Positions 9,922 through 46,704 of a stretch of 64,000 nucleotides of DNA are shown one piece after another. Below the pieces are notes generated by a model. That model did no database searches. It saw nothing but the letters and a program-made list of their open reading frames with translations, and was not told where the DNA came from. Origin of the DNA: an uncultured Planctomycetales bacterium (GTDB taxonomy: Bacteria; Omnitrophota; Gorgyraeia; Zapsychrales; JAHFFX01). The position numbers and the translations under genes are program-made. The first letter of the stretch is position 1, and each line of letters begins with the position of its first letter. Where the stretch lies: assembly GCA_964612665.1 (NCBI GenBank), contig CAZTCI010000001.1, positions 712,624 to 776,623 of the forward strand, read 5' to 3'.

Positions 9922-10806
9922 CTATTGTTTAGTCAGCTGGGCGAGAGGATTATTTTCAACGAAATCGAGGAATATTGGGCCCGCCACCAAGATACCTACA
10001 ACTGGGAAGATAAAAAACAAAAGTGGGACAAGCATTTTAAGAGGCGCTTTCATGGCCAACTGTTCCCCACGGCGAAAACGGGCTAGCCGCATGTCTTCCG
10101 ATAAAATATTTAAAGCTTCAGCGACCGAGGTTCCCATCTTGTCCGCCTGGATTAACGTTCTGGCCAGCGTTGAAAGATCCGGGAGGTCATACTTTACCGC
10201 CAAATCTTTAATGGCATCACGCCGCGCTTTACCGAGATTAATTTCTTGCATGACAGTATTAAACTCGCGAATAATAACAGATGGCGGCGATTTTTCAACA
10301 ACCCATTTCATTGCCAACATAAAGTCCAGCCCGGCATTAACACAAAGGCGGAGCAAATCAATCGCATCAGGCAATTCTTTTATAATGGCGCTTTTAATCT
10401 TTTTAATTTTACCTTTGAGCCAAAACTCCGGAGCCATATATGCGATTCCGAAACAGCAGGCCAGCCAAATAATAAACATCTGCGGACTTACCATATTAAA
10501 GGTCAGAATAATAAAAAAAACAAAAACCAATTCCTTGACCAAAAAATATTCTTCAGGCGTCATGTTGACATGAGCGATTTCCAAATCTTTCAGCATTCTG
10601 ACCCGAACCGGCCCCATTGTAAAAGGCTTATTAATAAGGGCGAGCTTTCTAATAAAAGAAAGAATCGATCTTTTTCTTTTTAAAGCCCCGACCTCAAAGC
10701 CCGTAAACCCCTGCAACCGCGGCCGGCTTTCCCACTCTATCGGCGAGACGCCCAGTATAAAACTAAACACCGAGATAAATACCATCATAGAAAAAACTGT
10801 AATCAT
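9922..10806 (-). CDS. tadC: Flp pilus assembly inner-membrane platform protein, TadC/TadB family (T2SS F domain)
   Basis: 294 aa, multiple TM segments; GspF/TadB-C-like cytoplasmic domain (…AIIKELPDAIDLLRLCVNAGLDF…); adjacent to second T2SSF paralog. Confidence 0.75.
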   Translation of the reverse strand: MITVFSMMVFISVFSFILGVSPIEWESRPRLQGFTGFEVGALKRKRSILSFIRKLALINKPFTMGPVRVRMLKDLEIAHVNMTPEEYFLVKELVFVFFIILTFNMVSPQMFIIWLACCFGIAYMAPEFWLKGKIKKIKSAIIKELPDAIDLLRLCVNAGLDFMLAMKWVVEKSPPSVIIREFNTVMQEINLGKARRDAIKDLAVKYDLPDLSTLARTLIQADKMGTSVAEALNILSEDMRLARFRRGEQLAMKAPLKMLVPLLFFIFPVVGILVAGPIFLDFVENNPLAQLTKQ

Positions 10807-10818: not shown

Positions 10819-11682
10819 TTAAAAATTCTTAAAGGTGCTGATCTTCCAAATAAAAAAAGCACCGATGATTTCTGAAAAAAAGGAATAAATCAACATCGCC
10901 CGGCCCAAAGACGACTTCATCATATGGATTAAAAAATCCGGTTTTGTCGACTGAACAATAATAAGAAATCCTATCGGCAAACAGGACATGACAATGCCTT
11001 GAATTTTTCCCTGCAATGTCAATGTATCGATATTTTGCTGGATTTTTTTATTTTCGCGAATGGTGTTTACGATGCGCGTAAAAATTGCCGGCAGATTGCC
11101 TCCCGTTTCGCGCGCCAAAAGAATCGCCGTAATGGTTTGCTGAAGTGCCGGCGAAGGCATTCTTTTATATAAATGATTGAATGCCTCGTCGAGAGCCACT
11201 CCCATTTTATTTTCACTTAAAACCATGCCGAATTCCTGATCAATCGGCTCCGGCATTTCCTCGACGACCGCTTCCATCGCTTGAACCAAACTCAATCCAC
11301 CTCGAAACGAACTCGACATAATCATGAGTGCGTCGACCAGTTGATTGGCAAATTTTTCTTTTCGTTTGCTGATCAGCATTTTGGCATAAAAACCGGGCAA
11401 TATAAAACCAATCATAAAAAGAGCAATGACACCTATGAGCCGGATAGCCGGTGGAAAAACTATAAAACCGATAATGGCCCCAATGACAGGCGCCAACAAT
11501 GAAGCGCCCGTCATTTTTTTGGAATCGGGTTTCATTAACATCCGTTCCATCTTAGTCGCAAATGTAGGGGCTGCGCGCCTTTCACCAATCACAACAGCAC
11601 GATTCGCAAAAAGGGGCATGGCCGTATAGCCCAAAATAAATACTGAAAGGAATATAAAAAAGAGGAGTATTGGAATGGCCAT
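10819..11682 (-). CDS. tadB: Flp pilus assembly inner-membrane platform protein, TadB/TadC family (T2SS F domain)
   Basis: 287 aa; TM helices plus T2SSF-like domain (…FANQLVDALMIMSSSFRGGLSLVQAME…). Confidence 0.75.
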   Translation of the reverse strand: MAIPILLFFIFLSVFILGYTAMPLFANRAVVIGERRAAPTFATKMERMLMKPDSKKMTGASLLAPVIGAIIGFIVFPPAIRLIGVIALFMIGFILPGFYAKMLISKRKEKFANQLVDALMIMSSSFRGGLSLVQAMEAVVEEMPEPIDQEFGMVLSENKMGVALDEAFNHLYKRMPSPALQQTITAILLARETGGNLPAIFTRIVNTIRENKKIQQNIDTLTLQGKIQGIVMSCLPIGFLIIVQSTKPDFLIHMMKSSLGRAMLIYSFFSEIIGAFFIWKISTFKNF

Positions 11683-12084: not shown

Positions 12085-12347
12085 CAAATCTCAAATGTCA
12101 AAATCCAAATCAATTCCAAATTTTTTAATCCCAAACTGCTCTGACTTCTTTGTATTTCGGATAATACTACTTAAAATCAACAACAACTCTGTACTTTCAA
12201 TGATTAACCAAACCAACTCATTCTTATGTAATTCTTCCTTTCGGCAAAATTAAAGGCCCTATCATAGATGTTGAATTTTCTATTGCTTGACATTGGAAAT
12301 TTAATGATTTATTTGTCATTTGACATTTGGTTTTTGTCATTAATTAA
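12085..12347. repeat. intergenic repeat element copy 1 (26-mer caaatctcaaatgtcaaaatccaaat ... 27-mer tgacatttggtttttgtcattaattaa, with ~180-bp insert between); putative promoter/operator
   Basis: Exact 26-mer at 12085-12110 and 27-mer at 12321-12347 are both repeated at 17655-17680 and 17710-17736. TGACA-N10-TGTCA inverted half-sites. Lies just upstream of the pilin gene 11728..12048. Confidence 0.7.
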
Positions 12348-18149: not shown

Positions 18150-18662
18150 TTAACGGTAACGGTTATCGGTTTTTTCAAAATTACTCCATGCCTCAGCCAA
18201 TTTATAAATCTGGCGACCAGATTTATCGTAAGCATCTATCAATTCATCGCAAAGTTTTATATCTACATTCTGTGGATAAATATCTCTACTTTGACTCAAA
18301 CTTACAATCATTTCATTAGATTCAGCCATTGCATCATCGAGATATTTTTGAAAGCCAGCTTTTTGATGCCGCTTTGCATATCCTTCAGCTATTAACCGCG
18401 GAATTGCTTTGGAAGCTCGGCGGAGCTGATCTATTATTGGCCTTTTCCTTTCCAAAGAAAGGTTGTTCTTTTCGTCATCGAAGAGAAAAGGCCTAATATT
18501 GAGTTTTGTTGCATCCTTTGGATTTACAAAACTCAATAAATCATCTTCTTCGCATTTTGGCAGACAGGGAAGAATCTTTTGCATAACAGTGGTCATTGAT
18601 TTATAACTATCTTGATAAACTGTTAAATCTCTAAAGCTGGTAATTCGCTTCTTTTCTTCCAT
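18150..18662 (-). CDS. four-helix-bundle protein (23S rRNA intervening-sequence protein / bAvd-like family)
   Basis: SFRDLTVYQDSYK … DQLRRASKAIPRLIAEGYAKRHQKAGFQKYLDDAMAESNEMIVSL matches the conserved QLrRAavSIpaNIAEGygR…F…A.GS..E core of this family. Confidence 0.65.
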   Translation of the reverse strand: MEEKKRITSFRDLTVYQDSYKSMTTVMQKILPCLPKCEEDDLLSFVNPKDATKLNIRPFLFDDEKNNLSLERKRPIIDQLRRASKAIPRLIAEGYAKRHQKAGFQKYLDDAMAESNEMIVSLSQSRDIYPQNVDIKLCDELIDAYDKSGRQIYKLAEAWSNFEKTDNRYR

Positions 18663-18733: not shown

Positions 18734-20119
18734 TCAATATCCCCGCGGGCCGAGATCTTGGACCCATTTACGCCCGCGGCCTTCCCAAACCCGGCTTCGA
18801 ACATACAAGGTTAAAGAGCCTTCGTCAAAACAAGTTTTATAAACATTGGCCGCTGAAAAACAATTGGCCGTGGGATCACTCCCCAGTCCCGGGGGCACAC
18901 ACACCTCCACGTCGGGATTCCACTGAGTATTAGGCTGATGAACCGGCGCGTCCCAAACCGCGCCACTCCCAGTGCCGCAAACAAATCCGGTATTTCTACT
19001 TAACTGAACAACCCGTTGAACGATGTCTGTAATATTTCTTCTTTGCGTACTTTTAACATTTTGAGTGGCACTAATAATTTTTCCTTCTTCAATTTGAAGG
19101 TACGTTCCATCTCTAGTGTAAGTCCATCCTTGAGTGCCTTCACTTGAAAAACCAGGCGCGGCGCCGGGACTTTTACGGTTATGGGTCATATCCAAATCGC
19201 CTTCTTGAAAATCCAAAACACGCAATAATTTAATAGGAACATTGCCTGAACCTGATTTGTTTTTGCTGTTGGGCGTATATCTTTTGCCCTTTATATCAAC
19301 CATTTCCAAAATTTGTTCTTCCTTTAAATCGTTGTCAACGTCAAGCGAGGCATTCTGGCCTGTCTGCAAATTAATTGAGCTCGTCGTGGCTTTCACCATC
19401 TGCCATTGCCACGTAAAAAGAGGACGGTCGGCGGGTGAAACAATCGTCGTGCCGTCGCGGTAAAGGTCAAAGCAAGTCAGACACGTGTTCCACTTACAAC
19501 GATCGCAGGCATTGGGATCCCAGGCGGTATTCACCTTTAAATTCGGACTAATAGAATACAGGGCCATACAGCCATTCCCTTTCCCATTGCAATCGGGAAT
19601 CCAATTGGGGTCTGTGTCATTTTGTATGTTGTATTCTTTAAAAGCTGCTGTTGTAAATTGAAAATGTAAGCCGTTAATAAAAAAATCGGTGCGGGGAAGA
19701 CTATCGTATTCACCATAGTCAATGGGCATGAAAAGATTTTTAGAAAATGTGGCTGAAGCTCCGACGATAAACGGCGAACGCGATTGGACACCGAATTTAC
19801 TCTCTTCAGCGCTTAAACGGTCTTCAACGATGAGGACACTGGCAATATTGCGCGAGGCGTTGCCGGGTTTTTTAGACATGCGGTTTTTTCCGGTTTCGGC
19901 GGCCCGCAGAGACGTGGCCATAGCCATACGCATCGCTTTCAATGATTCACTTTGCGAAGTTCCAGCACTTAATGCATAACGAATCATCATGCCTAACATA
20001 AAAATCAAAACAGCTCCAAAAACGGCGAGTTCAGTTGACGTTTGAGCTTTTGAGTAAATGCTCTTGAACAACTTAATATCCCCCAATAATTGTATCTCCC
20101 GTCTTCGTTTCGAGGGCAT
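18734..20119 (-). CDS. large TadE/TadG-like pseudopilin-family protein (about 445-461 aa), Cys-containing ectodomain
   Basis: N-term …LFKSIYSKAQTSTELAVFGAVLIFMLGMMI resembles the pilin leaders. Track start overlaps upstream pilin gene by 47 nt, so the real start may be an internal non-ATG codon. Confidence 0.5.
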   Translation of the reverse strand: MPSKRRREIQLLGDIKLFKSIYSKAQTSTELAVFGAVLIFMLGMMIRYALSAGTSQSESLKAMRMAMATSLRAAETGKNRMSKKPGNASRNIASVLIVEDRLSAEESKFGVQSRSPFIVGASATFSKNLFMPIDYGEYDSLPRTDFFINGLHFQFTTAAFKEYNIQNDTDPNWIPDCNGKGNGCMALYSISPNLKVNTAWDPNACDRCKWNTCLTCFDLYRDGTTIVSPADRPLFTWQWQMVKATTSSINLQTGQNASLDVDNDLKEEQILEMVDIKGKRYTPNSKNKSGSGNVPIKLLRVLDFQEGDLDMTHNRKSPGAAPGFSSEGTQGWTYTRDGTYLQIEEGKIISATQNVKSTQRRNITDIVQRVVQLSRNTGFVCGTGSGAVWDAPVHQPNTQWNPDVEVCVPPGLGSDPTANCFSAANVYKTCFDEGSLTLYVRSRVWEGRGRKWVQDLGPRGY

Positions 20120-20387
20120 CAGATCTGTCGACGCGGTTGGTCCAGACTCCGTTCAGCGTCGTGTCATTAACCGCAACAATTTGCATTTCTTCATTGGCAA
20201 CACGGCTATAGTTAATAATGGTATTTGAAACGCGCGGATCGTATTGGTCTCCTAAATCATCAACTGTACTTCGCCACCGTCCGGAGATGCCTCGTTTCAT
20301 ATAATTGCTCATCGCAATAAAAGCACCAATGATGACCATTATCAAAACCGTGTATTCAATCGTCGATTGTCCTTTGCGTTTAAACAT
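20073..20387 (-). CDS. Flp-type pilin paralog G (104 aa)
   Basis: MFKRKGQSTIEYTVLIMVIIGAF… (G/QSTI-EY); KRGISGRWRSTVDDLGDQYDP family motif. Confidence 0.7.
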   Translation of the reverse strand: MFKRKGQSTIEYTVLIMVIIGAFIAMSNYMKRGISGRWRSTVDDLGDQYDPRVSNTIINYSRVANEEMQIVAVNDTTLNGVWTNRVDRSDALETKTGDTIIGGY

Positions 20388-20423
20388 TGAATCCTCTTTT
20401 ATTTGAAAAGAATAAAAACAAAT

Positions 20424-20837
20424 TTAATTATCCGCATTAATGGTGTTTGAAAAACCTAAATTTGAAACTGAATTGGATATAACATCGCCGGAATCATTGT
20501 AAATAAAATCAATGGCGCCGGAATTTTCTTTCCGGCTTTTATTTGTATTAGACCTCGTCGCTGAATAGGCCTGCATCAAATAGCCGCCGTAAGGCACGAT
20601 CCGCTGGTCAGATTCATTTTGTATGCCAACCTGATCAGCCGTGACCTTAATAACACTTTGAATACCGCGCTTACAAGCGTTAAACATCGCAAACAAAACC
20701 ATGGTCACAATTCCAATTAAAAGCATGTACTCCATCATGCTCTGAGCGGTTTTATTTTTTAAGAAATATAGACGGGTGGACTCGGAAGAAGCCGCCGTTT
20801 CCGTCAATAAGAATTTTTTTTTATCGACAAATTTCAT
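20424..20837 (-). CDS. Flp-type pilin paralog F (start uncertain, up to 137 aa)
   Basis: …KNKTAQSMMEYMLLIGIVTMVLFAMF (A/QSMM-EY); CKRGIQS… motif; start codon overlaps stop of paralog E (TAATG). Confidence 0.55.
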   Translation of the reverse strand: MKFVDKKKFLLTETAASSESTRLYFLKNKTAQSMMEYMLLIGIVTMVLFAMFNACKRGIQSVIKVTADQVGIQNESDQRIVPYGGYLMQAYSATRSNTNKSRKENSGAIDFIYNDSGDVISNSVSNLGFSNTINADN

Positions 20838-21226
20838 TAATTACCGCCCGTCAAATTGAAGTCTCTCGGCGGCAATTGATTACTATCAGTGGTGACTCTA
20901 ACTTGGTCCGTAAATTTGTCGCCGAAGATACCTGTTGTGCCGCCACCTTGGAGCGTTTGAACGGAATTCATTAAACTATCGACATTGCTTTGTGTCTGCA
21001 CGTAGTAAGGTTCATACTCCTGTAAAATTACATTACCAAGTGTGGCCGTATTGCTTGTGGCAATGCTGTGAATCATATAATTCCGGGCATCCCAAATCCG
21101 TCCCTGCAAAGATCTTTTTACATAAACCGACATCGCCGAAATAACTGCAATCACTAAGAAAAAAGTGATCACATATTCTGAGGTTGCCTGTCCCAATTTA
21201 TGCAAAACAATTTTAGAGTGAAACAT
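20837..21226 (-). CDS. Flp-type pilin paralog E (129 aa)
   Basis: …HKLGQATSEYVITFFLVIAVISAM… ; KRSLQGRIWDA…EYEPYY motif. Confidence 0.65.
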   Translation of the reverse strand: MFHSKIVLHKLGQATSEYVITFFLVIAVISAMSVYVKRSLQGRIWDARNYMIHSIATSNTATLGNVILQEYEPYYVQTQSNVDSLMNSVQTLQGGGTTGIFGDKFTDQVRVTTDSNQLPPRDFNLTGGN

Positions 21227-21400
21227 GTCTTGTTGCTATCATTTTTGTAATTATATTTGTAATAAAAACGGCTATGATTCTGGTTTTGCTGAACGTTAAA
21301 AAGTGCTGTCCCAAAAAACATGGCTTACCCCTCGTCGGGTGACGATTGAGTAAGCCATGTTTTTTGATCTATAGAACAACCCAACTCTATTACCGACGAG

Positions 21401-21724
21401 TTATTTACCCCAGAATGTCTGGTCTACGTTGATAATAGTTGAATCTTGGTTAATTAAGGTTGTTTCATTGGTGGCCATTTCTGAGCGGCTGATACCTTTG
21501 TCAAAAGTTTCAAAGGTTCTACCCTTTGTCATTGTCGACTTGTTCGCCTTGGTGTTCCCTGGGTCAAATTGATCACCGATATCATCGGTAGCACTCTTTA
21601 ACCGGCCTTGAACACCGCGCTTAATGTAAACTTGAATGGACAAAAGAGCACCAATAATAATGATAATCAAAACAGCATACTCCAAGGTGCTTTGTCCTTT
21701 CATTTTTCTTAGCAATTTAAACAT
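21401..21724 (-). CDS. Flp-type pilin paralog D (107 aa)
   Basis: MFKLLRKMKGQSTLEYAVLIIIIIGALL; KRGVQGRLKSATDDIGDQFDP; AAGGAGG RBS upstream. Confidence 0.7.
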   Translation of the reverse strand: MFKLLRKMKGQSTLEYAVLIIIIIGALLSIQVYIKRGVQGRLKSATDDIGDQFDPGNTKANKSTMTKGRTFETFDKGISRSEMATNETTLINQDSTIINVDQTFWGK

Positions 21725-21782
21725 TGATTAGTCCTCCTTAAAATTAGACATAAAGTTGCTTGCTTAACAAATGAAGCGGGTA

Positions 21783-22139
21783 TTAATGGCCAAGAACTTC
21801 GCCAAAATTCCCGTAATTAGACTGTTGGAAACCACCTAGGTCTCTATTGCGTGTACTATTTTCCAACTGACTGACTACACCCTTGTCTAACTGTTGGGTC
21901 TGATTCATGTCTCTGGAAATAGCGTAATTACTTTGTAGATAATACGGTTCGTATTGATCCGTAGCGCCCAAGCTGGATGTTTGGCTGGTTAAAAATTTAC
22001 CAGCATCGCGGATTCTACCTTGAAGACTTCGTTGCGCATATGTCTGCATGGCAATGATAGCCGCGACAACCAAAGCGATCAAAAGTGCATATTCTGCAGT
22101 GTTCTGACCTTTCTTATTTCTATTTATTCTTTTAAACAT
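21783..22139 (-). CDS. Flp-type pilin paralog C (118 aa)
   Basis: MFKRINRNKKGQNTAEYALLIALVVAAIIAM; QRSLQGRIRDA…DQYEPYY; GGAGG RBS. Confidence 0.7.
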   Translation of the reverse strand: MFKRINRNKKGQNTAEYALLIALVVAAIIAMQTYAQRSLQGRIRDAGKFLTSQTSSLGATDQYEPYYLQSNYAISRDMNQTQQLDKGVVSQLENSTRNRDLGGFQQSNYGNFGEVLGH

Positions 22140-22907: not shown

Positions 22908-24572
22908 CTAAATTAGGACATCCATAGCAAAAAAAGACCCAGACGGGTCTTGAATATTCATATTTTTAAGCATTTTGATCGCAAATTCAAGCTCTTTACG
23001 ATATTGATAATCAGTGGGAACTTGTAATTTCACAATAATCTTTTGACCTATTTTTTGGAAACGGCCCGCCAATTTGTAAAAACGTTCACACATTTGATTA
23101 AAATCAAGTTCTTTGCAATTTTGGCTAAAAAAGTGACATTTGGCATACTCATTTAAAGCTAAGCTTATAACAAACGCATTTTCCAAGAGAGTGGGCACTT
23201 GCATGGGGTCGGATGCTACCATTTTTTCGTAAAAATCGAATGGAATTATTGAATTTTTTATTTCTTTATTGTCCAAACTGTCATTTTTATTTAAAAGTAA
23301 TGAAAAATTCACATCTTCTTTATAATCAAAGTTAAGATTATTAGTAAAAATCAAGCTACTGACCGCGTTAACCTTATTTTCTTCGCTTAAAATAATCAAT
23401 TTTAGAGGAATTTCCTTTGTCACACCCAAAGTTTCACCTTGAACTTCATGCTCACCGACATAAAAAGTTTTGTCTAAATCCTTGCAATAAAATTTTTTTA
23501 ACTTTATGTCTTGCAGAATATTAGAAACGCTACTTATTCTTTCAGGTCTTGTCACAAATAAAAATTGTCGTTTCTTTTTGGGGATTACATTAAATTGGGC
23601 CAATTCGTTGTCATTTTGATCCAAAATTTCTAGTTTGGACATTTCATTAGAAATTCCTTCTAAAGATTCCACTAATTTAAGCTCATTAGGTATATTTTCA
23701 GCCAATCCTTTGTCATATATGGTAATGTAATCCAAATTTGTAATAAAACGTCGTGTTACTTGTTTAATAAATCTTCCTAAAGAAAGGCCTGCGCCTCTTT
23801 CGCCAGATTGAAAAACCACCTGTTCTCTAGCGTCTAAGAAAACCTCTGTTTTGTCTTTTAAAGTTATCTTAAGCGAATTTGCTTCAGCAAAAATTTGTGG
23901 AATCTCATTGCCAACAACAAGAGACAATGTTCTCAAATCAGAAATGCTGTCTAGCAATTTTAAGAGCCTATCAAAACGAATCTTCTCTATCCCACTAAGT
24001 AAAGCCAACCCTGTTCCTTTATACGAATTGAAATCCTCAGGTTTGTTAATACCAAAAGACGGTGCCCATAACAAAACTTCACCAAGTTGGTTCACCTCGT
24101 CGGGATTAAAAATGTTTCCTTCCAAAAATTTTTCTAGAAATCTTCCCATTAAAAATCGTTCACCCAAATCCCATTCGGCAGCCTTTAAAAAAAACAGCCC
24201 TAATCTATCATGCATGGATTCGATTTTTTCTGCTTTTAAATCTTTTTTAGAAGATGTCCAAACGAGAGGGGATTCTTTTTTAGGCGCAAGGAGCAGGTTA
24301 GGTATGGTGAAAAGCTGTTGCTTTTTCTCGACGGGAATTTGAAATTTTTTGACTTTTTTATCTGTAAGGACGGCTGTGCGCCCAACTGGATTGCTCAACT
24401 GAGCGTCTTTGATGATTTGGTTTATGGCGGATTTTGAAACATTGATTTGAAATTTTTCTTCAACAATAGCAACTAAACGCCGGCAGCTTAATTGAGCGTC
24501 AGATTTTTTCTGATCAATAATAAAATCAATGACTTCTTTTCTTAATTTATAAACAACGCCCATGGAAACCAT
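22908..24572 (-). CDS. AT-rich hypothetical protein (554 aa) with N-terminal helix-turn-helix; ORFan-like
   Basis: Strongly K/N/I-rich and much lower GC than its neighbours. N-term LRKEVIDFIIDQKKSDAQLSCRRLVAIVEEKFQINVSKSAINQIIKD resembles resolvase/transposase-type HTH. No catalytic motifs recognised. Confidence 0.5.
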   Translation of the reverse strand: MVSMGVVYKLRKEVIDFIIDQKKSDAQLSCRRLVAIVEEKFQINVSKSAINQIIKDAQLSNPVGRTAVLTDKKVKKFQIPVEKKQQLFTIPNLLLAPKKESPLVWTSSKKDLKAEKIESMHDRLGLFFLKAAEWDLGERFLMGRFLEKFLEGNIFNPDEVNQLGEVLLWAPSFGINKPEDFNSYKGTGLALLSGIEKIRFDRLLKLLDSISDLRTLSLVVGNEIPQIFAEANSLKITLKDKTEVFLDAREQVVFQSGERGAGLSLGRFIKQVTRRFITNLDYITIYDKGLAENIPNELKLVESLEGISNEMSKLEILDQNDNELAQFNVIPKKKRQFLFVTRPERISSVSNILQDIKLKKFYCKDLDKTFYVGEHEVQGETLGVTKEIPLKLIILSEENKVNAVSSLIFTNNLNFDYKEDVNFSLLLNKNDSLDNKEIKNSIIPFDFYEKMVASDPMQVPTLLENAFVISLALNEYAKCHFFSQNCKELDFNQMCERFYKLAGRFQKIGQKIIVKLQVPTDYQYRKELEFAIKMLKNMNIQDPSGSFFAMDVLI

Positions 24573-25075: not shown

Positions 25076-25426
25076 TTAAGCAGCTAGAATTTGAATAGAA
25101 TCGCCTAATTCAGTTTTGGATTTTGAAATAGTTTTAACAGGAAGTTCAATCGCGCGGTTGGCTTTTAAAAAAATAGGGCTGAGCCGAAATGGTTGTATCT
25201 CCTCGAGTAATCCCACCACTTTTCCAGAGTTATCGATAAAAATAACATCAATAGCAAATCGCATAAACAACATGTGAATTGACTGACAATGAGTAATGAT
25301 CAGCCCTTCTCCGTCGACGATAGATTGTCGGTTTAATAAACCAACCATACGGGTTCTGAAAGTATCCGCGAGGACTGCGCGGTCAGCAATAATTATTTTG
25401 CGGGTGGAATTAAATACGGTAAGCAA
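25076..25426 (-). CDS. DUF192 (COG1430) domain protein
   Basis: …ADTFRTRMVGLLNR…GEGLIITHCQSIHMLFMRFAIDVIFIDNSGKVVGL…AIELPVK matches DUF192 core. Confidence 0.6.
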   Translation of the reverse strand: MLTVFNSTRKIIIADRAVLADTFRTRMVGLLNRQSIVDGEGLIITHCQSIHMLFMRFAIDVIFIDNSGKVVGLLEEIQPFRLSPIFLKANRAIELPVKTISKSKTELGDSIQILAA

Positions 25427-25434: not shown

Positions 25435-27603
25435 TTATGGTGTAAAAATGTTTTTATCCAAAGCGATGCCTTTAGAAGAAAAATCTTCGTAACATTTGGG
25501 AACATAACCTGTGGTTTTATAGTCACCTAGAATTTTCCCGTCGCTGTCTGTTCCTAGACGTTCAAAAATAAAAATGTCGCGTAAATCCAACTGGTGTGTC
25601 TTCTGATCAACGCCGGCCACTTCGGTTATGCCGGTTATTTTTCTTGAACCATCTGAAAAACGGTTGACTTGAACGATGATGTCGATGGCTGAGCCGATCA
25701 TTTCATACATGGCGCTTAAGGGAAGTTCAACGCCCGTTAAAAGCATCATGGCCGTTAAACGAACCAAAACATCGCGTGTGGTATTGGCGTGGATTGTCGT
25801 CAAGGAACCATCGTGACCTGTGTTCATAGCCTGCAACATATCTAATACTTCTGCGCCGCGGCACTCACCAATGACAATCCTATCAGGACGCATACGAAGC
25901 GTATTCACAAACAAATCACGAATAGAAACAGCGCCTTTTCCTTCAATGTTCGCCGGGCGTGCTTCCAACCGGCCCCAATGACTGTACGGTTTAAGCCGCA
26001 ATTCGGCGGCGTCTTCTATGGTGATAATGCGTTCTCCGTCGGGAACAAAAAGGGAAATAATGTTAAGCAATGTTGTTTTACCGGCGCCTGTACCGCCGGA
26101 AACAATAATGTTACTTCTTCCCAAAACTGCGGCATGAAGAAAATCAGCCATCGGCTGAGACAAACTCTTAAAGCGATGGATCAAATCGTCAATCGTATAA
26201 CGTTCTTGGCTGAATTTACGGATCGTGACCATTGGTCCATTTAAAGATAACGGACGAATAATAGCATTAATACGAGACCCGTCGGGCAAACGCGCATCAA
26301 CCATCGGTGTCGACTCATCAATACGCCGGCCCAAGGGCGCAACAATACGGTCAATAACCGAACGAACCTGTTGTTCGGAAATAAACCGCCGATTGGTTAA
26401 AATTAATTTCCCATGTTTTTCAATGTAGATCTCATCCTTCTTATTAACCATGATATCGGTGACGTCTGAATCTGCCAAAAACTCTTCGATAGGACCAAGC
26501 CCTAGCGTTTCGTTTACAATTTCTTTAACCAGCCGGGTTCGCTCTTCATGGGAAGAAATGATAGCGCCCGCTTCCTCGGCGAGAATATTGCTGACAATTT
26601 TTTCAGTTGTCTCACGGATTTTCTGAAACTGCTGCGGGTTCGCCAAGGCTTCCGGAGTCAGGTCTTTTAAATCCATCTTGCCTAACAACTTTTCATGGGT
26701 CTTCTTTTTAAGCCGAACGACTTCGTCTTCTTCGTTAACATTGTAAATTTTATCTTTCCCTTTTTCCTGTACGCCTTGAGCAATGCCAAATTTTTCCCAA
26801 AACTCACCCGGCTTACCTAAATCTTCTGTTGTTCTTAATTTAGCTATGTCGGTCGCCTGCACAAAAAGTCCAGGCGCATTTAAATCGTTGACCATCTTAT
26901 TAAAAGCCGCCGCGACTTTGCTGCGCGGACTATCAACGACACAGGGAACGCCGCGGTTTAAAGCCATTCCAACCGCTTTTCCGTCGGAAGGAATTTGGGC
27001 AAAAATTTCGCAAGCCAAGGCCGCCTTAACTTCCTGCCAGGCAACCCCGCCATAACTTTCAGCACGGTTTAAAATTAACCTGACCATTTTGAGAGGGAAA
27101 TGCAGGCTCTGTAAAACTTCTAAGGCCGTTCGGATTTGATAAACAGCCAGAATATCTGGTGTCGCAATAAGAAAAATTAGATTGGAATAATCTAAAATGG
27201 TGATCAGCGTCTCGCTAAAGGCCTTACCGCCGTCGATAATAATGTAATCGTAAAGCTGGCCAACTTTTTTAAGAAAGGGTTTAATATTGTCAGGTGTAAT
27301 GTGACCAACTTGGCGGACGTGCGTGACGGCGGGGAGAAAATCAAATCCAGCAGAATGCGCCACAACATATCTTTTAATAATCGTGGGGTCGTTGTCTTTT
27401 TCTATTTCAGCCAAAAGATCAACGATAGCTAGACGGGGGGACAAATTGAGCATCCGGGCCATATCCTGAGCGGCCTGGAAGTCCATGTCCAAAAGCAAAA
27501 CCTTGTGGCCGCTCAACGCCAATGCCGTCGAGAGATTGACACACACAAAAGTTTTGCCAACCCCACCTTTATTACTAAAAACTGCTACGCTTTTTGCAGG
27601 CAT
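25435..27603 (-). CDS. tadZ-tadA: fused TadZ/CpaE-like ParA-family ATPase (N-term, about 260 aa) + TadA/CpaF secretion ATPase (C-term); 722 aa
   Basis: N-term deviant Walker A VFSNKGGVGKT (MinD/ParA/CpaE). C-term SGGTGAGKTTLLN…ITIEDAAEL…TGHDGSLTTIHANT (VirB11/CpaF family). One uninterrupted ORF. Confidence 0.8.
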   Translation of the reverse strand: MPAKSVAVFSNKGGVGKTFVCVNLSTALALSGHKVLLLDMDFQAAQDMARMLNLSPRLAIVDLLAEIEKDNDPTIIKRYVVAHSAGFDFLPAVTHVRQVGHITPDNIKPFLKKVGQLYDYIIIDGGKAFSETLITILDYSNLIFLIATPDILAVYQIRTALEVLQSLHFPLKMVRLILNRAESYGGVAWQEVKAALACEIFAQIPSDGKAVGMALNRGVPCVVDSPRSKVAAAFNKMVNDLNAPGLFVQATDIAKLRTTEDLGKPGEFWEKFGIAQGVQEKGKDKIYNVNEEDEVVRLKKKTHEKLLGKMDLKDLTPEALANPQQFQKIRETTEKIVSNILAEEAGAIISSHEERTRLVKEIVNETLGLGPIEEFLADSDVTDIMVNKKDEIYIEKHGKLILTNRRFISEQQVRSVIDRIVAPLGRRIDESTPMVDARLPDGSRINAIIRPLSLNGPMVTIRKFSQERYTIDDLIHRFKSLSQPMADFLHAAVLGRSNIIVSGGTGAGKTTLLNIISLFVPDGERIITIEDAAELRLKPYSHWGRLEARPANIEGKGAVSIRDLFVNTLRMRPDRIVIGECRGAEVLDMLQAMNTGHDGSLTTIHANTTRDVLVRLTAMMLLTGVELPLSAMYEMIGSAIDIIVQVNRFSDGSRKITGITEVAGVDQKTHQLDLRDIFIFERLGTDSDGKILGDYKTTGYVPKCYEDFSSKGIALDKNIFTP

Positions 27604-27607: not shown

Positions 27608-29827
27608 TTATTTTTGCAAACTAAAAACGATTGGTATTGTTAAATCCAATTCTTGGAGGTTAGTATCCGCAGGAAACGCGGTGTAAGGGGCCAGGCTTTT
27701 GGCGGTTGTAAGAGCAGCTTCATCGAAGATGTCGTGGCCAGAGGACTCTTTTACAGCAGCATAAGCTAAAGTCCCATCGCTTAAAATATGCAGCATCAAT
27801 TTTACGGTGCCTTCCCAATTGTATTGCCTTGCCTCGTCGGGATAATTGATGGCACTAGCGATTTTTTGTTGGACGGCGGCAGCGTAATTTTGACTTGATG
27901 AACTCTTAGCAGCCGCCGGTTTTGAAACTTTCTGACTATAAACAATAGGAACGTTCAACACCAAATCATCTAAATTTAATTTCAAAGGAAACGCGTCATA
28001 AGGTGAAAGAACTTGTGCCGTATGAAGCGCATCTTTATCAAAAATATTGTATCCTGAGGATTCTTTAATTTGTGAATCAGCTAATGAACCATTTTTTAAA
28101 AGATGTAAGCTCAATGTAACCGTTCCCTCCCAGCCTTTTTCTTTAGCTTCCGGCGGGTAGGTGATAGCCTTAGAAATTTTTTCTTGGATTGTTTTTGAAT
28201 AAGCGTCGATCAGGTCCTTTTGTTCAGCATTATTTCCGGATGCCCCTGCTTGTTCTCCTGAAGATTGATCTGTCGCTTCGGCGGTGGCATCTTGAAGCGG
28301 TATGGCATCAGCATTTTCAGACATTGAGCTTTGTGTTGGCATTCTCGACGGAGGGACTGATGTTTCAGATGTCATTGATGAATCTGATGACGACACTGAA
28401 GCGGCGTCGGATGTGGAAGATTCCGTTGTCTTAGCAGCAGGCGGAGGAACCTCTTTCGTTTTTTGCCGAAGAATCGTAGGCGTTACGGAAATAATTAACT
28501 CAGTGTCTTGATTGTTAGACGAAGGCGTTTTACGGGATCGGAAAACCGCACCCACAATAGGAATATCGCCCAGGAAAGGAACCTTGCGGACTGTTTCTCC
28601 CTCAACATGCTTAATCAAGCCAGCCAGAATAATCGTCTGCTGGTCGTCTAAAAGCAGCTGCGTTTGTGCCGTGCGGGTAGCAAAGGCAGGAACTTGCCCG
28701 ACGGAATGCGTTGGATCAACTTCGCTGACCTCGGTATTCATGACGACATTGACTTTATCCTGTTGGATTGTGGGGGTGATCGTTAGACTGATACCAAAAT
28801 CTTTAAACTCAACATTAGTCTGCACATTACCACCAACGGTCGTAGATGTCGTACTGATTGGAACCTGTCCTCCGACGAGAAAACTGGCCTCCTTACCGCT
28901 TTTGACGACCAATTTAGGTTTTGAAAGGACCCGGCCTTTTCCTTCTTCGACGACTGCATTAATAACGGCAGAAACAGATGTTGTTCGTCTAAGTTTGGCT
29001 ACTTTAAAAATGCTGTCTGCAAAAGGAATAGAACTTTGTGCTGTGCTGTCGACAAGCCCTTTTCCAGGCAACCCCTCGGTAATATTAATTTGATCAACCC
29101 AGTCTAAGCCGATGCTTTTGGATGCGGTGGCATTTAACTCGGCGAGCTGAACATCAACCTGAACCAAGTCGTTGCTGATATCTTCACGCAAAAGATTAAT
29201 CACATTGGTCATGTAAGGATGAATAATAGCGTCGGCCTCGGCTTTCTTTTGTTCACTTAAATTACCCGAAGCCACGACCTTACCTTCGTAAAGGTTCACT
29301 TCAAGATTAACTCCGTCGATCTTGGCGACTTTGAAAAGTTCTTCCAGCCGGGTTTTTAAAATATTTAAATCCTCGGCGTAAACACGGATCATTATTGTCC
29401 GCTTGCCATATTGGTCCCACACAAATAAAGCTGATTGTCCTGGTTTCTTGGCCAGCAAGAGGATTTCATCATTGGTGACATTCGCGATGTCCGCAATGTC
29501 AGGATCACTTACAGAAACACGCACTAATGAATAGGCTTTAATCGGAGTGAGTTCTCCTTTAAGCATGTGAACTTCGTCTTGATGTAGGATGTCAGGAGGA
29601 AGGTCTTTGGAGTCTTGCTTAGCATCTTGTTTCGTATCTTGGCTGGCGGTCTTGTCCTCGCCAAAAATTTCTTTCGGAGCAATCCATAGAGTTTCCATTA
29701 AAATGAAACCCATCAAAACAACCCACGCACAGCTCTTATTGATTTTTTTATCAAAAGCTCGGTGATTTAGGCTAGATCTCTTTTCCTCGACGGAATAAAA
29801 ATCTATAAGCTGTTTTTTATTTTTCAT
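27608..29827 (-). CDS. cpaC: Flp pilus secretin CpaC/RcpA-like with two C-terminal TonB C-terminal (TonB_C) domains; 739 aa
   Basis: Secretin core …VRKVPFLGDIPIVGAVFRS…ELIISVTPTIL. Two repeats at the C-terminus, YPPEAKEKGWEGTVTLSLHLLKNGSL…ESSGYNIFDKDAL and YPDEARQYNWEGTVKLMLHILSDGTL…ESSGHDIFDEAAL, each fit the TonB_C signature. Confidence 0.75.
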   Translation of the reverse strand: MKNKKQLIDFYSVEEKRSSLNHRAFDKKINKSCAWVVLMGFILMETLWIAPKEIFGEDKTASQDTKQDAKQDSKDLPPDILHQDEVHMLKGELTPIKAYSLVRVSVSDPDIADIANVTNDEILLLAKKPGQSALFVWDQYGKRTIMIRVYAEDLNILKTRLEELFKVAKIDGVNLEVNLYEGKVVASGNLSEQKKAEADAIIHPYMTNVINLLREDISNDLVQVDVQLAELNATASKSIGLDWVDQINITEGLPGKGLVDSTAQSSIPFADSIFKVAKLRRTTSVSAVINAVVEEGKGRVLSKPKLVVKSGKEASFLVGGQVPISTTSTTVGGNVQTNVEFKDFGISLTITPTIQQDKVNVVMNTEVSEVDPTHSVGQVPAFATRTAQTQLLLDDQQTIILAGLIKHVEGETVRKVPFLGDIPIVGAVFRSRKTPSSNNQDTELIISVTPTILRQKTKEVPPPAAKTTESSTSDAASVSSSDSSMTSETSVPPSRMPTQSSMSENADAIPLQDATAEATDQSSGEQAGASGNNAEQKDLIDAYSKTIQEKISKAITYPPEAKEKGWEGTVTLSLHLLKNGSLADSQIKESSGYNIFDKDALHTAQVLSPYDAFPLKLNLDDLVLNVPIVYSQKVSKPAAAKSSSSQNYAAAVQQKIASAINYPDEARQYNWEGTVKLMLHILSDGTLAYAAVKESSGHDIFDEAALTTAKSLAPYTAFPADTNLQELDLTIPIVFSLQK

Positions 29828-29852: not shown

Positions 29853-30650
29853 TTATAATTCCCGGCCCCCGCGAAATATTTGAATAACCGGCTTAGCTTC
29901 TTCAGCGGCTGGTTCGAATGAACTGGTTTTCGCCTTTGTCCCGCCAAGTTCAGTACCTTGTCTTTCCAAAACATAGTCCGCGAGCGTTTGCCAATTATAA
30001 GGAGGTACCATAAATGATTCTGTTTCGGAAGGAGAACGTAACGCCAACTGGAGCTTACCATTTTGCTGAACAAAACTCAGCAGCCCTGCTTCTTCTGGAT
30101 CCAGCGCAAAAGTCACAGTCAAATCCTTGGTCTGCTGCTGGGCTTCATAAACACCAGGAGAATTCACATTCGTCCCGACAGCTAAGACTTGAACGTTTTG
30201 AAAAATCATGGCTGTAATTGTTTGGGCTGGTTGATATCCGACTTGCTGAGAACCGGGAGGTGTCATCTGCGCGAGAATGTCGACGAAATCGCCGGGATTG
30301 ATTAAACCACCGACGGCGGCGAGAGAATCAATTCGAACAGTGACGGCTCTCTTGCCCGCAGGTGTTTTGACAGCTAATGATGATTGGGGAATAATGGCAG
30401 CCGGCCCTTTTTCGGCGGCGGCTTTTTGCGCGGCAGCAATTGCCTGTTGGCGCACAGTGCCTAATTCTGTTTTTAATGCGGTGATTTCTTCTTTGAGGGG
30501 TTCAACATTTTTTTGAATTTCTTGAGAGGCAACTTCTTCTTTTTTAGTGATTTCACTTTGAATATAATTTCCGGCTCCGATGGCGGCGATTAATCCTATG
30601 GTCAACGCGATCACAATGATAACAATCGTTCTTCGCTGTTCATTGGTCAT
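29853..30650 (-). CDS. cpaB: Flp pilus assembly protein CpaB/RcpC (SAF domain)
   Basis: N-terminal TM, coiled region, …AVTVRIDSLAAVGGLINPGDFVDILA… typical of CpaB. Confidence 0.7.
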   Translation of the reverse strand: MTNEQRRTIVIIVIALTIGLIAAIGAGNYIQSEITKKEEVASQEIQKNVEPLKEEITALKTELGTVRQQAIAAAQKAAAEKGPAAIIPQSSLAVKTPAGKRAVTVRIDSLAAVGGLINPGDFVDILAQMTPPGSQQVGYQPAQTITAMIFQNVQVLAVGTNVNSPGVYEAQQQTKDLTVTFALDPEEAGLLSFVQQNGKLQLALRSPSETESFMVPPYNWQTLADYVLERQGTELGGTKAKTSSFEPAAEEAKPVIQIFRGGREL

Positions 30651-31724: not shown

Positions 31725-32771
31725 TTAACAGGGTGGCCCGCCGCCTCCTGCTCCCTTAGGACATCCATGGCAGTCAAAATTTTTATTTCTAAAACCCTGA
31801 TTAAATCGTTGATCGCAATTAAAATTAGTAGCTGGATTATTCCAATCCGTTGACCAGACAGGACAGCTTTTTCCCCTAATAATACAATTTGCCGGTCCTA
31901 GACCTCCAGCAGGAGGAACGTTGGAACACTTTACAGTACCTATTACCGTGTCACTCGAACTTGGAAAACAAGAAGTCCCTTCCTGAAAATATATTTCCCC
32001 CGTAGCTGTATTGTTGGCAACGCAACCCCAATTGCTTCCGCCCGACATATTAACATCACAACCCGCAATAAATGGGCATTCTGGAGGACATCGAAGGGCT
32101 GGATTTACATCGGTGCCTTGGCAATCCCCGTTAACATTTGTAAGTGGTATATTACATTCCGGCGGCTGGCATCTTTGCAATTGAGGATCAAAGGGGTAAG
32201 CTCCGTCGCACACCGCTTCGCATTTGGCACCTGTACAATTAGCGACGGGGATCCACGGCGTTGGCGAGGGAACATTCTGGTCTGAGCCAGTGCAAATCGT
32301 TGCATGGTCAGGAATTGAACCGGTGCATCCAGCCGGACAGATAGGATCAGGAACACAATTTTTGGGCTGAAGATTATTGCCGCATTGAATTAGTGTGCTT
32401 TGTCCCGTCGGACAGCCGCCGCTCGCTCCGCACAATTTCGTACAGCAGGTATCATCAACAATACAACTGGTTTCCTGAGGTTCACAATCAAGAGGCGTGC
32501 AATTTTTTTGATACAGCTTTTCCGTCGGTTTACACGATCCCAATCCGCAGCCAATCGGTTCTTTCGGGCATTTACATGTGGGCGCCGGAAAATCAAAGCC
32601 TCCTTTTATCATTGGGTCGGTGTAAGAATCGTCGGCAACATCTTCCCACATTTTAAGATGGGCATTGACCGAGCGAATAACATACGGCCCCATGACAACA
32701 ATCCCAACCATGACCAAAACCATAACCGTAAGATATTCAAGCGTTGATTGGGCTTCTTTGGATAGGCGCAT
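31725..32771 (-). CDS. large Flp-motif pilin-like cysteine-rich protein (348 aa)
   Basis: MRLSKEAQSTLEYLTVMVLVMVGIVVMG (A/QSTL-EY + helix); rest has >40 Cys in CxxC/CPxxC patterns. Confidence 0.6.
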   Translation of the reverse strand: MRLSKEAQSTLEYLTVMVLVMVGIVVMGPYVIRSVNAHLKMWEDVADDSYTDPMIKGGFDFPAPTCKCPKEPIGCGLGSCKPTEKLYQKNCTPLDCEPQETSCIVDDTCCTKLCGASGGCPTGQSTLIQCGNNLQPKNCVPDPICPAGCTGSIPDHATICTGSDQNVPSPTPWIPVANCTGAKCEAVCDGAYPFDPQLQRCQPPECNIPLTNVNGDCQGTDVNPALRCPPECPFIAGCDVNMSGGSNWGCVANNTATGEIYFQEGTSCFPSSSDTVIGTVKCSNVPPAGGLGPANCIIRGKSCPVWSTDWNNPATNFNCDQRFNQGFRNKNFDCHGCPKGAGGGGPPC

Positions 32772-33937: not shown

Positions 33938-34267
33938 TTAATCAACCAACATGGCTTTAAGAATTTCTTTCATGCTACGTATTGTTTCTTTATCTAACTT
34001 TCCCATCTTTTTTACTAAGCGCCTTTTATCAATGGTGCGAATTTGATCTAAAACAATCCAACCATCTCTTTCCTGAAATTTAACTGAAACTCTCGTGGGA
34101 TAATGATGAGAACGTGATGTGAGGGGAGCAATAATAACGGTGCTTACATTTTGATTTATTTCGTCGGGAGAAATAACAACACAAGGGCGTGTTTTTTTAA
34201 TTTCGCTGCCAAGCGCAGGGTCCAGCGTAACCCAAAAAACATCATACTGCTTTACTACCATTCCCAT
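33938..34267 (-). CDS. mazF: type II toxin MazF/PemK-family endoribonuclease
   Basis: 109 aa; …[31 protein letters not shown]… PemK/MazF signature; 4-nt region overlap with upstream antitoxin. Confidence 0.8.
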
Positions 34268-34503
34268 TCCTTCATCGGCAAATCTATTTTATCGTTAATA
34301 AGTAATGTATCTTCACCCCGAGCATGCATATCTTTAAAAGCTTTATCCCAGCCTTCTCTCGTATTTTTTTGAACGGGTTTCAAAATAATTTGTTCACCTT
34401 CAACGCGTAAATCTAAAGTTTTTCTAATACGGCATTGGTTTAAAATCGCCTTGGGAATTCTTATACCTTTTGAATTGCCGATTGGAACCAGATTAATTTT
34501 CAT
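34255..34503 (-). CDS. mazE: type II antitoxin MazE (AbrB/SpoVT swapped-hairpin)
   Basis: 82 aa; …LVPIGNSKGIRIPKAILNQ… AbrB/MazE fold motif. Confidence 0.75.
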   Translation of the reverse strand: MKINLVPIGNSKGIRIPKAILNQCRIRKTLDLRVEGEQIILKPVQKNTREGWDKAFKDMHARGEDTLLINDKIDLPMKEWEW

Positions 34504-36532: not shown

Positions 36533-38986
36533 TTATTCTTCATCCTTTGCCATAACGTGCGCGACCGAACTTACCTGATCATTCTGATTAATTGAAATCA
36601 ACCGCACACCCTGCGTACTCCGCGCGGTTTCGCGAATGTCTTTAACTGCGCAACGCACCATCATTCCTTGTTTCGTAACCGCCATAATCTCATCGCCATC
36701 CGTTACCGCCAAAACACCGACGACATGCCCATTCTTTTCGGTTACTTTAACGTTAATGATCCCCTTTCCGCCTCTCGATTGAATGCGATATTCATCAAAG
36801 CTCGAACGCTTGGCAAAACCAGCGGAAGTCACTGTTAACAATGTGCTGCCAGTTTTTTGAATGTCCGAAGGAAAAACCTGCAAACTTACAACAACATCGC
36901 CTTTTTCCAGATTAATTCCTCGGACGCCACCCGCAGCGCGACCCATATCGCGAACATCCTTCTCAGAAAATCGAAGCGATTGACCTTCTTTTGTCGCCAA
37001 TAAAATTTCATGTTTGCCAGCGCTGATCGCTGTGCCAATCAATTGGTCGCCTTTATCCAGCGTAATGCCGACGATGCCGCCCTTGCGCGGATTGCTGAAT
37101 GCTGACAGTTTTGTCTTCTTAATCGTTCCTTGCGCCGTCGCCATAACGACAAATTGATCTTCTGGAAATTCTTTAACAGCGACAATCGAACTAATCTGCT
37201 CATCGTTCGCAAACGATAAAAGATTGACGATCGCTTTTCCCTTGGCGCTGCGCGAGGCTATTGGAATTTCATAAACCTTAAGCCAGCGCACCATGCCTTT
37301 ATTCGAAAAAATCAGCAAATAATCTTTGGTGTTAGCGATAAAGAGGTGTTTCACAAAATCCTCTTCCTTTGTTTCCATCGCCGTGACACCCTTACCTCCT
37401 CGACGCTGTTTACGGTAAGTATCAACGGAGAGGCGCTTTATATAACCGTCGTTGCTGATTGTGATCGCCATTTCTTCCTCAGCGATCAAATCCTCAACTT
37501 CAATCTCTTCGGCTTTACCGGCGATTTCTGTGCGGCGCTCGTCACTATATTTTGTTTTAAGTTCGGCGAGTTCATCTTTAATAATTTGGTCAATCTTTTT
37601 TTCCGACGCTAAAATCGCCCTGAACATCTCAATATTCTTTAAAAGCTCTTTGTATTCGGCTTCAATCTTGTCGCGTTCCAACGCGGTTAAACGCTGTAGT
37701 TGCATTTCGAGAATCGCTTGCGCTTGGATTTCGGTTAATTCAAATTTTTTCATTAAATTAACCTTGGCTTCCGGTGTGGATTTAGAACTGCGGATTGTTT
37801 TGATGATTGCATCGATGGCATCAATGGCAATGCGCAAACCTTCCAAAATATGCGCACGTTTAAGCGCTTTGTCCAAATCAAACTGTGTCCGTCGACGAAT
37901 GACAACGCGGCGGTGTTCGACATAATAAACCATTAACTGTTTTAGATTCAACTCCTGTGGCCTATTATTAACAAGCGCCAAATTAATAATGCCAAAAGTC
38001 GTTTCCATCTGCGTGTGTTTATAGAGAGAATTTAAAATAATCTGCGGTTCGACATCGCGGCGCAGTTCAATGACAACACGAATGCCATCCTTATCTGATT
38101 CATCACGGATATCAGTAATGCCGTCGATTGATTTGGCTTGAACTAACCCGGCGATAGTCTCAATAAGATTGGCTTTATTAACTTGATAAGGCAGTTCAGT
38201 GATAACAATGGAATCTTTGTTGCCCTTTTGTCGTTCAATAGAAGCTTTTGCGCGTAAAATAATTTTTCCTCGGCCTTTTGTATAAGCTTCAACAATACCT
38301 TCGCGACCGCAAATGATTCCTCCTGTTGGAAAATCAGGACCTTTGACGATTTTATTTAGCTCTTTAATGGTCACCTCAGGATTATCAATAACTTGGATAA
38401 TGCCTTCAGAAATTTCTCCCAAATTGTGCGGCGCCATGTTGGTTGCCATGCCGACCGCAATACCACTCGAACCATTAACTAACAGATTCGGAATGGCTGC
38501 GGGCAAAATGCGCGGCTCAACTAAGGACGCGTCAAAGTTCGGCGCAAAATCGACCGTTTCCTTTTCAATGTCAGCCAATATTTCTTCAGCAATGGGTGCC
38601 ATGCGTGCTTCGGTATAACGCATCGCCGCGGCCGCATCTCCGTCGACAGAACCGAAATTTCCTTGCCCATCGATTAAAGGATATCGCAATGAAAAATCCT
38701 GAACCATACGCACCATCGTGTCATATACCGCCATGTCCCCGTGAGGATGATACTTACCCAACACTTCCCCAACGATACGTGCGCTTTTTTTATAAGCTTT
38801 ATTATGTTCAAGATTCAATTCTTTCATAGCATAGAGAATGCGGCGATGAACCGGCTTTAGCCCGTCACGCACATCGGGCAAAGCACGCCCTACAATGACG
38901 CTCATCGAATAAGAAAGATAAGAATTTTTCATCTCTTCTTCGAGATAAACTGGAACAATTTTTTCTTTTACTGTTAAATCTTTCAT
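36533..38986 (-). CDS. gyrA: DNA gyrase subunit A
   Basis: 817 aa; active-site region …AMRYTEARM…; C-terminal beta-pinwheel repeats. Confidence 0.95.
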
Positions 38987-39018
38987 CTAGATTTACCTTT
39001 CTACTGAAGGATGTCTAA

Positions 39019-41846
<2,828 letters not shown>

Positions 41847-44677: not shown

Positions 44678-44815
44678 ATGAAAAAACATTTAAAAACTCC
44701 GTCGAATCTTAAAGGTAAAAGAAATCATGGGTTTAGGCGAAGAATGCGCACTTCTAATGGACGTGCTGTCTTAAGAAATCGCCGCGCTAAGGGGCGGAGA
44801 AAGCTTAGTACATAA
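44678..44815 (+). CDS. rpmH: 50S ribosomal protein L34
   Basis: [45 protein letters not shown]. Confidence 0.9.
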
Positions 44816-44834
44816 ATAGACCTTTCTTGCCGCT

Positions 44835-45041: not shown

Positions 45042-45047
45042 AAAATT

Positions 45048-46700: not shown

Positions 46701-46704
46701 AAAA

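Follow-up and report, generated by a model that had tools for sequence, protein, structure and literature searches.

Do the localization ATPase TadZ (CpaE) and the motor ATPase TadA (CpaF) of a Tad (type IVc) pilus have to be separate proteins? The question is raised by a 64,000-nucleotide stretch of DNA from an uncultured member of the Omnitrophota (contig CAZTCI010000001.1, positions 712,624 to 776,623; hereafter the window). In an initial annotation, one open reading frame (ORF) of this stretch was read as a fusion of the two ATPases, with the proposal that such a fusion hard-wires the motor to the cell pole. The gene, here called tadZA, lies at 25435..27603 on the minus strand and encodes a protein of 722 amino acids (aa) consisting of a TadZ-type ATPase domain, a linker and a TadA/CpaF motor ATPase. 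Omnitrophota are uncultured, ultra-small and probably predatory or parasitic bacteria. The window gene is an example of a recently described, widespread kind of fusion, here from a new phylum; what is added here is the phyletic breadth of the fusion, the identity of its N-terminal domain as TadZ without the receiver-like domain, and linker motifs specific to clades.

Read on the minus strand, tadZA has an ATG start and 722 codons with no internal stop. Pfam models match both parts of the protein, AAA_31/CbiA/ParA at residues 4-243 (E 3e-17 to 8e-16) and T2SSE at residues 368-644 (E 1.6e-55), and in NCBIfam, MinD-type models match at 5-243 and a TadA-type ATPase model at 327-659 (321 bits). The single-ORF fusion proposed in the initial annotation was thus borne out, the hidden Markov models that it had named for a check (AAA_31/CbiA and T2SSE) both match, and direct reading confirmed all the motifs that it had claimed, namely KGGVGKT in the N-terminal domain and the Walker A, Walker B, Asp box and His box of the motor. 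The same 722-aa protein is encoded, identical, on contigs of two other assemblies (runs SRR12313479 and SRR12313478). A search of 5.8 billion clusters found at least 118 clusters at 90% identity whose proteins, about 720 aa long, have the same Pfam architecture and are 65-77% identical to the window protein, and all their organism-named members are Candidatus Omnitrophota. In the alignment, the linker motifs are kept in frame across the Omnitrophota orthologs. Because of the identical protein in two other assemblies, the full-length Omnitrophota clusters and the conserved linker motifs, tadZA is, on the evidence of sequence, a genuine single-gene fusion and not an assembly artifact. A lost stop or a frameshift joining neighboring tadZ and tadA could mimic such a fusion by one error, as the two genes are usually adjacent and separate with the tadZ stop near the tadA start (53 of the 80 loci listed below), but this is next to impossible when the two other assemblies come from different sequencing runs, one ORF of about 720-760 aa recurs in diverged Omnitrophota and in Bdellovibrionales, with at least 118 clusters in each, the linker motifs are conserved in frame, and the receiver domain expected from a merged stand-alone tadZ is absent.

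The motor (aa 326-722, 25438..26628, minus strand), assigned from T2SSE and from its match to solved CpaF, is by homology a complete TadA/CpaF, as had been claimed. Its approximately 400 residues match the solved Caulobacter CpaF (8rkd/8rjf/9e24) with an E value of 3.5e-107 (362 bits), compared with at most 130 bits for FlaI and an archaeal GspE-like ATPase and about 110 bits for VirB11; its nearest relatives among solved or curated proteins are CpaF/TadA, and not PilB, PilT, GspE or VirB11. Direct reading gives the Walker A motif GGTGAGKTT (aa 503-511, 26071..26097), the Asp box ERIITIEDAAEL (aa 524-535, 25999..26034), the Walker B motif RPDRIVIGECRG (aa 572-583, 25855..25890) and the His box TGHDGSLTTIHA (aa 595-606, 25786..25821), all on the minus strand. 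These four motifs are common to the window protein and the CpaF/TadA of Caulobacter crescentus (8rjf, 8rkd, 9e24), the identity being about 42%, and CpaF was also the top match in Foldseek (42% identity) when an AlphaFold2 (AF2) model was used as the query. The best NCBIfam model for the motor was TIGR03819 (321 bits against a cut-off of 373). The match begins at residue 112 of the solved Caulobacter CpaF, a chain of 501 aa; ahead of the motor, the window protein has the TadZ ATPase domain and the linker, unlike Caulobacter CpaF. The full-length AF2 model has a mean predicted local distance difference test score (pLDDT) of 69.6 and a predicted template modeling score (pTM) of 0.42, with part of the motor modeled poorly, and it was used for the domain boundaries and the fold of the N-terminal domain only.

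Identity of the N-terminal domain

The N-terminal domain (aa 1-245, 26869..27603, minus strand) was assigned as a TadZ/CpaE-type ATPase of the ParA/MinD fold from Pfam, profile scores and the AF2 fold. Its deviant Walker A, KGGVGKT (aa 12-18, 27550..27570, minus strand), keeps both the signature Lys12 and the P-loop Lys17, and K12, G13-G16, K17, D39, D41 and D124 do not vary among the orthologs of Omnitrophota and Bdellovibrionales. This motif fits the K/RGGxGx(S/T) pattern of TadZ/CpaE but also that of canonical MinD, and hence is not discriminating by itself; nor can TadZ and MinD be separated for this domain by a single-sequence search. We therefore turned to a profile built from 33 N-terminal domains of fused proteins (fused-N profile). 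Searched against PDB, its best match was 3ea0 with 159 bits, the best MinD scoring 127 bits. 3ea0, cited here only as a 'ParA family ATPase' from Chlorobium, has a KGGDGGS motif resembling that of TadZ. In the AF2 model, the N-terminal domain has a pLDDT of about 80-95 and its fold matches 3ea0 with a template modeling (TM) score of 0.90, as well as matching FleN and MinD. Scored with the fused-N profile, the proteins encoded directly upstream of tadA in 53 loci gave 136-239 bits in all but one case (L082, 101 bits, where the domain was aligned only in part), while two archaeal MinDs gave 122-127 bits and the window's own Soj 80 bits.

The stand-alone proteins encoded upstream of tadA have 130-190 further residues ahead of the ATPase domain. 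In five of the eight proteins scanned, Response_reg matched in these extra residues, mostly weakly and below Pfam's cut-off. A receiver-like extension followed by the ATPase is the canonical TadZ/CpaE architecture. No receiver-like domain (atypical receiver domain, ARD) stands in front of the N-terminal domain of the window protein, where the Walker A begins at residue 12, and the HMMER matches show that its end-to-end homologs all start within 27 residues of the position of this Walker A. Thus, alignment to the tadA-upstream proteins and the profile scores identify the domain as the ATPase half of TadZ, and because the Walker A begins at residue 12, it is a half without its receiver-like partner. 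The stand-alone TadZ/CpaE proteins, such as A. actinomycetemcomitans TadZ, C. crescentus CpaE and E. rectale TadZ (PDB 3fkq), resemble it in the ParA/MinD fold and the K/RGGxGx(S/T) Walker A; their gene lies directly in front of tadA, and they outscore MinD and Soj on the fused-N profile. They differ in being separate polypeptides and in having the N-terminal receiver-like domain of about 130-190 aa, neither of which is a feature of the window protein.

We consider it very unlikely that the domain is instead a MinD/FlhG/ParA-type ATPase recruited independently, which would make the protein a new MinD-CpaF chimera and not a carrier of a TadZ ortholog. MinD, FlhG and FleN do have the fold and the canonical deviant Walker A in common with it, KGGVGKT being the usual MinD/ParA form, yet KGGVGK(T/S) is also found in many stand-alone TadZ proteins, and the position of the P-loop Lys varies across the fused family as it does in TadZ. 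The best NCBIfam matches of the single sequence are likewise minD models, and some orthologs are labeled 'MinD' by the Joint Genome Institute (JGI), but the scores stay far under the cut-offs (92 bits against 202 for minD_arch, 78 against 213 for minD_bact). In a neighbor-joining (NJ) tree of the TadZ domain, the split between MinD and Soj on one side and the TadZ and fused sequences on the other has a bootstrap of only 36/100, which counts toward such an origin; against it stand the higher scores of tadA-adjacent TadZ than of MinD on the family profile, and 3ea0, not MinD, as the best PDB match by both profile and fold. Furthermore, the domain is encoded within a tad locus, its fusion partner is a secretion ATPase, and no MinC or MinE genes lie nearby. 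The profile scores and the position upstream of tadA accordingly uphold the CpaE/TadZ lineage claimed in the initial annotation over a generic MinD/ParA one.

Distribution of the fusion

When 1.84 billion cluster representatives were searched exhaustively with HMMER, at least 43 of the best 150 representatives at 50% identity aligned end to end with the window protein, at 38-53% identity. The named ones come from Bdellovibrionales (41%), Bacteriovoracia, Bdellovibrionota, Elusimicrobiota (38%) and Spirochaetota; one from Bdellovibrionales (P0138) aligns over window residues 6-721 with 41% identity, and the Bdellovibrionales clade holds at least 118 clusters at 90% identity with the fused architecture. 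Some other relatives (P0121, P0122, P0125, P0175 and others) are 1150-1600 aa long and are tandem motor fusions in which a CpaF-like stretch occurs two to four times, and many more, of 550-650 aa, have N-terminal extensions of 130-230 aa.

We also scanned the species genomes of GTDB, where 80 loci among the matches listed (600 matched stretches) were analyzed as a sample and not as a census. At 53 of them, from many phyla, the N-terminal domain aligns to a separate ORF of about 380-450 aa ending at the tadA start; the aligned part is the C-terminal approximately 240 residues, and the position is that of tadZ/cpaE. Eight of the 80 are true single-ORF fusions, a ninth (L021) has an open frame of 738 aa whose N-terminal part fell below the tblastn threshold, and 18 gave no match to the N-terminal domain upstream of tadA. 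The single-ORF fusions belong to Omnitrophota, Pseudobdellovibrionaceae, Bdellovibrionales, Oligoflexia, Elusimicrobiales and a few poorly classified metagenome-assembled genomes. About 60 GTDB genomes had looked like carriers of the fusion, in that query residues 1-720 were covered, and were found on checking the ORFs to have mostly adjacent tadZ/tadA pairs. On the number of fusion origins, NJ trees were built from 119 TadA-domain and 103 TadZ-domain sequences. In the TadA tree, all 48 fused sequences and 12 unfused ones fall on one side of a bipartition with a bootstrap of 3/100; in the TadZ tree, 43 of the 47 fused N-terminal domains come together with a bootstrap of 0/100.

The architecture was described in July 2026 as 'TadZA' in Bdellovibrio bacteriovorus HD100 (bioRxiv 10.64898/2026.07.08.737194). 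There the protein is essential, has the same architecture without the ARD, and interacts with RomR, a polarity hub, via the TadZ region and the linker; it moves from pole to pole in less than 1 second, favoring the invasive pole in a manner that depends on RomR. The preprint, which gives no phyletic survey, terms the architecture atypical. Both Bdellovibrio TadZA and the window protein are thus one polypeptide of an ARD-less TadZ, a flexible linker and TadA, in hosts of different phyla, and the window protein is homologous from end to end to proteins named as Bdellovibrionales, the HD100 sequence itself not being among those compared. For Omnitrophota, Seymour et al. (2023) described Tad systems whose TadB/TadC group with those of Bdellovibrionales, but do not mention the fusion; neither do Denise et al. 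(2019). The initial view that TadZ and TadA are separate in described Tad systems is outdated, given the description of TadZA in Bdellovibrio. The architecture is not new but common, as the cluster counts for Omnitrophota and Bdellovibrionales and the end-to-end matches show. The initial annotation had named as a refutation that the architecture is common and already annotated: common it is, while its public annotation is merely generic (TadA, CpaF, MinD, or an ATPase of type II secretion, type IV pili or type IV secretion). The labels TadA, CpaF or MinD hide the second domain of the fused proteins.

Proposed working of the fused protein

The two domains are joined by a linker of about 80 residues (aa ~246-325, 26629..26868, minus strand), whose length and sequence vary between clades. 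AF2 gives a pLDDT below 50 over linker residues 258-292. Within it, the motif KPGEFWEKFGI (aa 264-274, 26782..26814, minus strand) is conserved in the Omnitrophota clade only; the consensus of this clade is KPGEFWEKFG(I/V) at aa 264-274, followed before the motor by an acidic stretch and then LKKK. The motif may be an element that binds a partner or the membrane. For the latter, an amphipathic membrane helix like that of MinD was considered as a possibility; AF2 places a short helix at the motif, with low confidence only. In Bdellovibrionales, the linker has G(I/V)LQKLK..S(R/K)PK in place of KPGEFWEKFG.

From the two domain identities, the fusion, its conservation and its tad context, all established here, we infer how the protein might work. 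We think it quite likely that the Omnitrophota machine to which tadZA belongs is a Tad (type IVc) pilus or attack apparatus, in which an ARD-less TadZ ATPase, the flexible linker of about 80 residues and the TadA/CpaF motor act together as follows. The TadA part would form a hexameric motor on the TadB/TadC platform and drive the assembly and retraction of Flp pilins. The fusion would set TadZ and TadA at 1:1 and so place six TadZ domains around every motor. Since Lys12, Lys17, Asp39, Asp41 and Asp124 are invariant, these domains are probably able to bind ATP and to form ATP-sandwich dimers in the manner of other members of the ParA/MinD family, and the nucleotide state would thereby couple to the assembly or positioning of the machine. 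Because the receiver-like targeting domain is absent, the spatial cue would come from a separate partner docking on the TadZ domain and the linker, as RomR does in Bdellovibrio, and the best candidate for the docking site would be the Omnitrophota-specific KPGEFWEKFGI.

Several observations weigh against this proposal. The Omnitrophota linker motif is unlike that of Bdellovibrionales, so a RomR-like partner cannot be assumed. As the RomR interaction involves both TadZ and the linker, it is not transferable from Bdellovibrio to the window protein; the difference between the clades argues against a shared docking motif, and the partner of Omnitrophota TadZA, if any, likely differs from that in Bdellovibrio. 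The window protein scores below the curated cut-offs of every specific NCBIfam model. The AF2 model, with its pTM of 0.42, is uninformative on contacts between the domains, and both the ATP-dependent dimerization of the N-terminal domain and the ring around the motor are predictions read from sequence. In several other fused lineages (e.g. P0148, P0199), the Walker A of the N-terminal domain is degenerate, and hence ATP turnover by this domain would not be universally required.

This last point, together with the low ATPase activity of stand-alone TadZ mentioned in a passage of Denise et al. (2019) citing Xu (2012), would fit an N-terminal domain that serves passively as a scaffold or tether, being a pseudo-ATPase whose role does not depend on nucleotide, and that is fused simply to stabilize or recruit the motor. 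We regard this as improbable for the window protein, since K12, K17, D39, D41 and D124 are all invariant in the Omnitrophota and Bdellovibrionales clades, and prefer an ATP-binding TadZ domain coupled to the motor. The pole localization that the initial annotation saw as hard-wired by the fusion is unsupported. In stand-alone TadZ, it is the N-terminal ARD that has been proposed to target the protein to the pole (bioRxiv 10.64898/2026.07.08.737194), and the fused TadZ part does not have it; moreover, the one fusion of this kind with experimental data, TadZA of Bdellovibrio, shuttles rapidly from pole to pole and owes its polar bias to RomR.

An architecture described as an oddity of Bdellovibrio now extends to Omnitrophota and other phyla, and its spread supports the earlier link between the Tad platform proteins of Omnitrophota and Bdellovibrionales. 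In Caulobacter, an outer cytoplasmic ring around the TadA hexamer has been seen by cryo-electron tomography and is unassigned. The conserved fusion is indirect evidence for a physical interaction of TadZ with TadA and for their equal stoichiometry, which bears on this ring. More tentatively, and with rather less than even confidence, we suggest that ARD-less TadZA marks a distinct, possibly horizontally shared Tad lineage with which predatory or epibiotic bacteria (Bdellovibrionota, Omnitrophota, Elusimicrobiota and some Spirochaetota) attack or attach to other cells, the linker motifs serving as interchangeable docking sites for polarity or contact cues. If this were true, the obligatory 1:1 fusion would be Rosetta-stone evidence for TadZ as the outer cytoplasmic ring around the TadA hexamer. 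The clade-specific linker motifs are targets for finding what positions these machines.

The tad locus and its surroundings

The motor is encoded in a tad locus with TadB/TadC, RcpA, RcpC and Flp-like pilins. On the same strand, the genes follow in the order Flp-like Cys-rich protein, PpiC-type chaperone, RcpC/CpaB (29853..30650, Pfam), RcpA/CpaC secretin (27608..29827, Pfam), tadZA and a DUF192 protein (25076..25426, Pfam), then a 554-aa ORF, five tandem Flp-like pilin genes (20073..22139), large proteins with no Pfam match, and the T2SSF platform proteins TadB-like (10819..11682) and TadC-like (9922..10806), both assigned by Pfam; all of these are on the minus strand. The stop codon of the secretin gene is 4 nucleotides upstream of the tadZA ATG. 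No separate tadZ is present in the window, where the only other ParA-type gene is the chromosomal soj adjoining parB.

The order RcpC - secretin - tadZA is common to the window and the Bdellovibrionota-type loci. They differ in what follows: in the window, tadZA is followed by DUF192, with tadB/tadC about 14 kb downstream, whereas in the Bdellovibrionota-type loci it is followed directly by tadB. No match to tadC was seen in the flanks of the latter, consistent with the separate tadC locus of Bdellovibrio (bioRxiv 10.64898/2026.07.08.737194). A prepilin peptidase of the Peptidase_A24 family (TadV/CpaA) was not found among the window ORFs scanned, a scan that did not take in every ORF; TadV is likewise missing from the tad loci of Bdellovibrio according to the same preprint. 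The DUF192 gene is linked to tadZA or to tad platform genes in three loci of different lineages (L003, L005 and L021), and its product is a candidate for a conserved accessory part of Tad machines of this subtype.

The five pilin paralogs were recognized by their N-terminal KGQST(I/L)EY motifs and have a common N-terminus of the KGQST(I/L)EY(A/T)VLI type; their matches to Flp_Fap and to a class III signal peptide are weak only, with Flp_Fap matching in one. A comparable array is present in an Omnitrophota locus (L005). The secretin carries two C-terminal TonB_C domains preceded by a Ser/Thr-rich spacer, an unusual architecture for a secretin; in Omnitrophota loci L003-L005, too, TonB_C-like segments were matched where the secretin gene ends. 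The 554-aa ORF (22908-24572, minus strand), which has no Pfam match and a lower G+C content (~35%), lies between tadZA-DUF192 and the flp array, and adjoins tadZA also in other assemblies of the same organism. Four large proteins of the cluster, all on the minus strand, have no Pfam match: 31725-32771 (348 aa), 18734-20119 (461 aa), 14826-17657 (943 aa) and 12344-14797 (817 aa). Of these, the 348-aa protein, which has a Flp-like prepilin N-terminus, and the 943-aa one are very rich in Cys, and all four are candidate minor or tip pilins or effectors. Directly downstream of tadC, an open frame of more than 3083 codons (1-~9250, minus strand) extends beyond the first nucleotide of the window and probably belongs to a giant ORF of the kind reported in Omnitrophota beside pilus or secretion genes.

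Inside the cluster, there is also a gene of the 23S rRNA intervening-sequence protein family, encoding a four-helix-bundle protein (18150-18662, minus strand), and the cluster is closely preceded, on its upstream side, by the toxin-antitoxin pair MazE/MazF (PemK) (33938-34503, minus strand). The region 36533-48593 resembles a chromosomal origin, with gyrA, gyrB, dnaN and dnaA on the minus strand and then yidC, soj and parB on the plus strand; the GC skew changes sign there and the G+C content falls to about 31% at 42-46 kb. The tad cluster is about 12 kb from dnaA. At the opposite end of the window, a stand-alone PilZ-domain protein is encoded at 63229-63624 on the plus strand.

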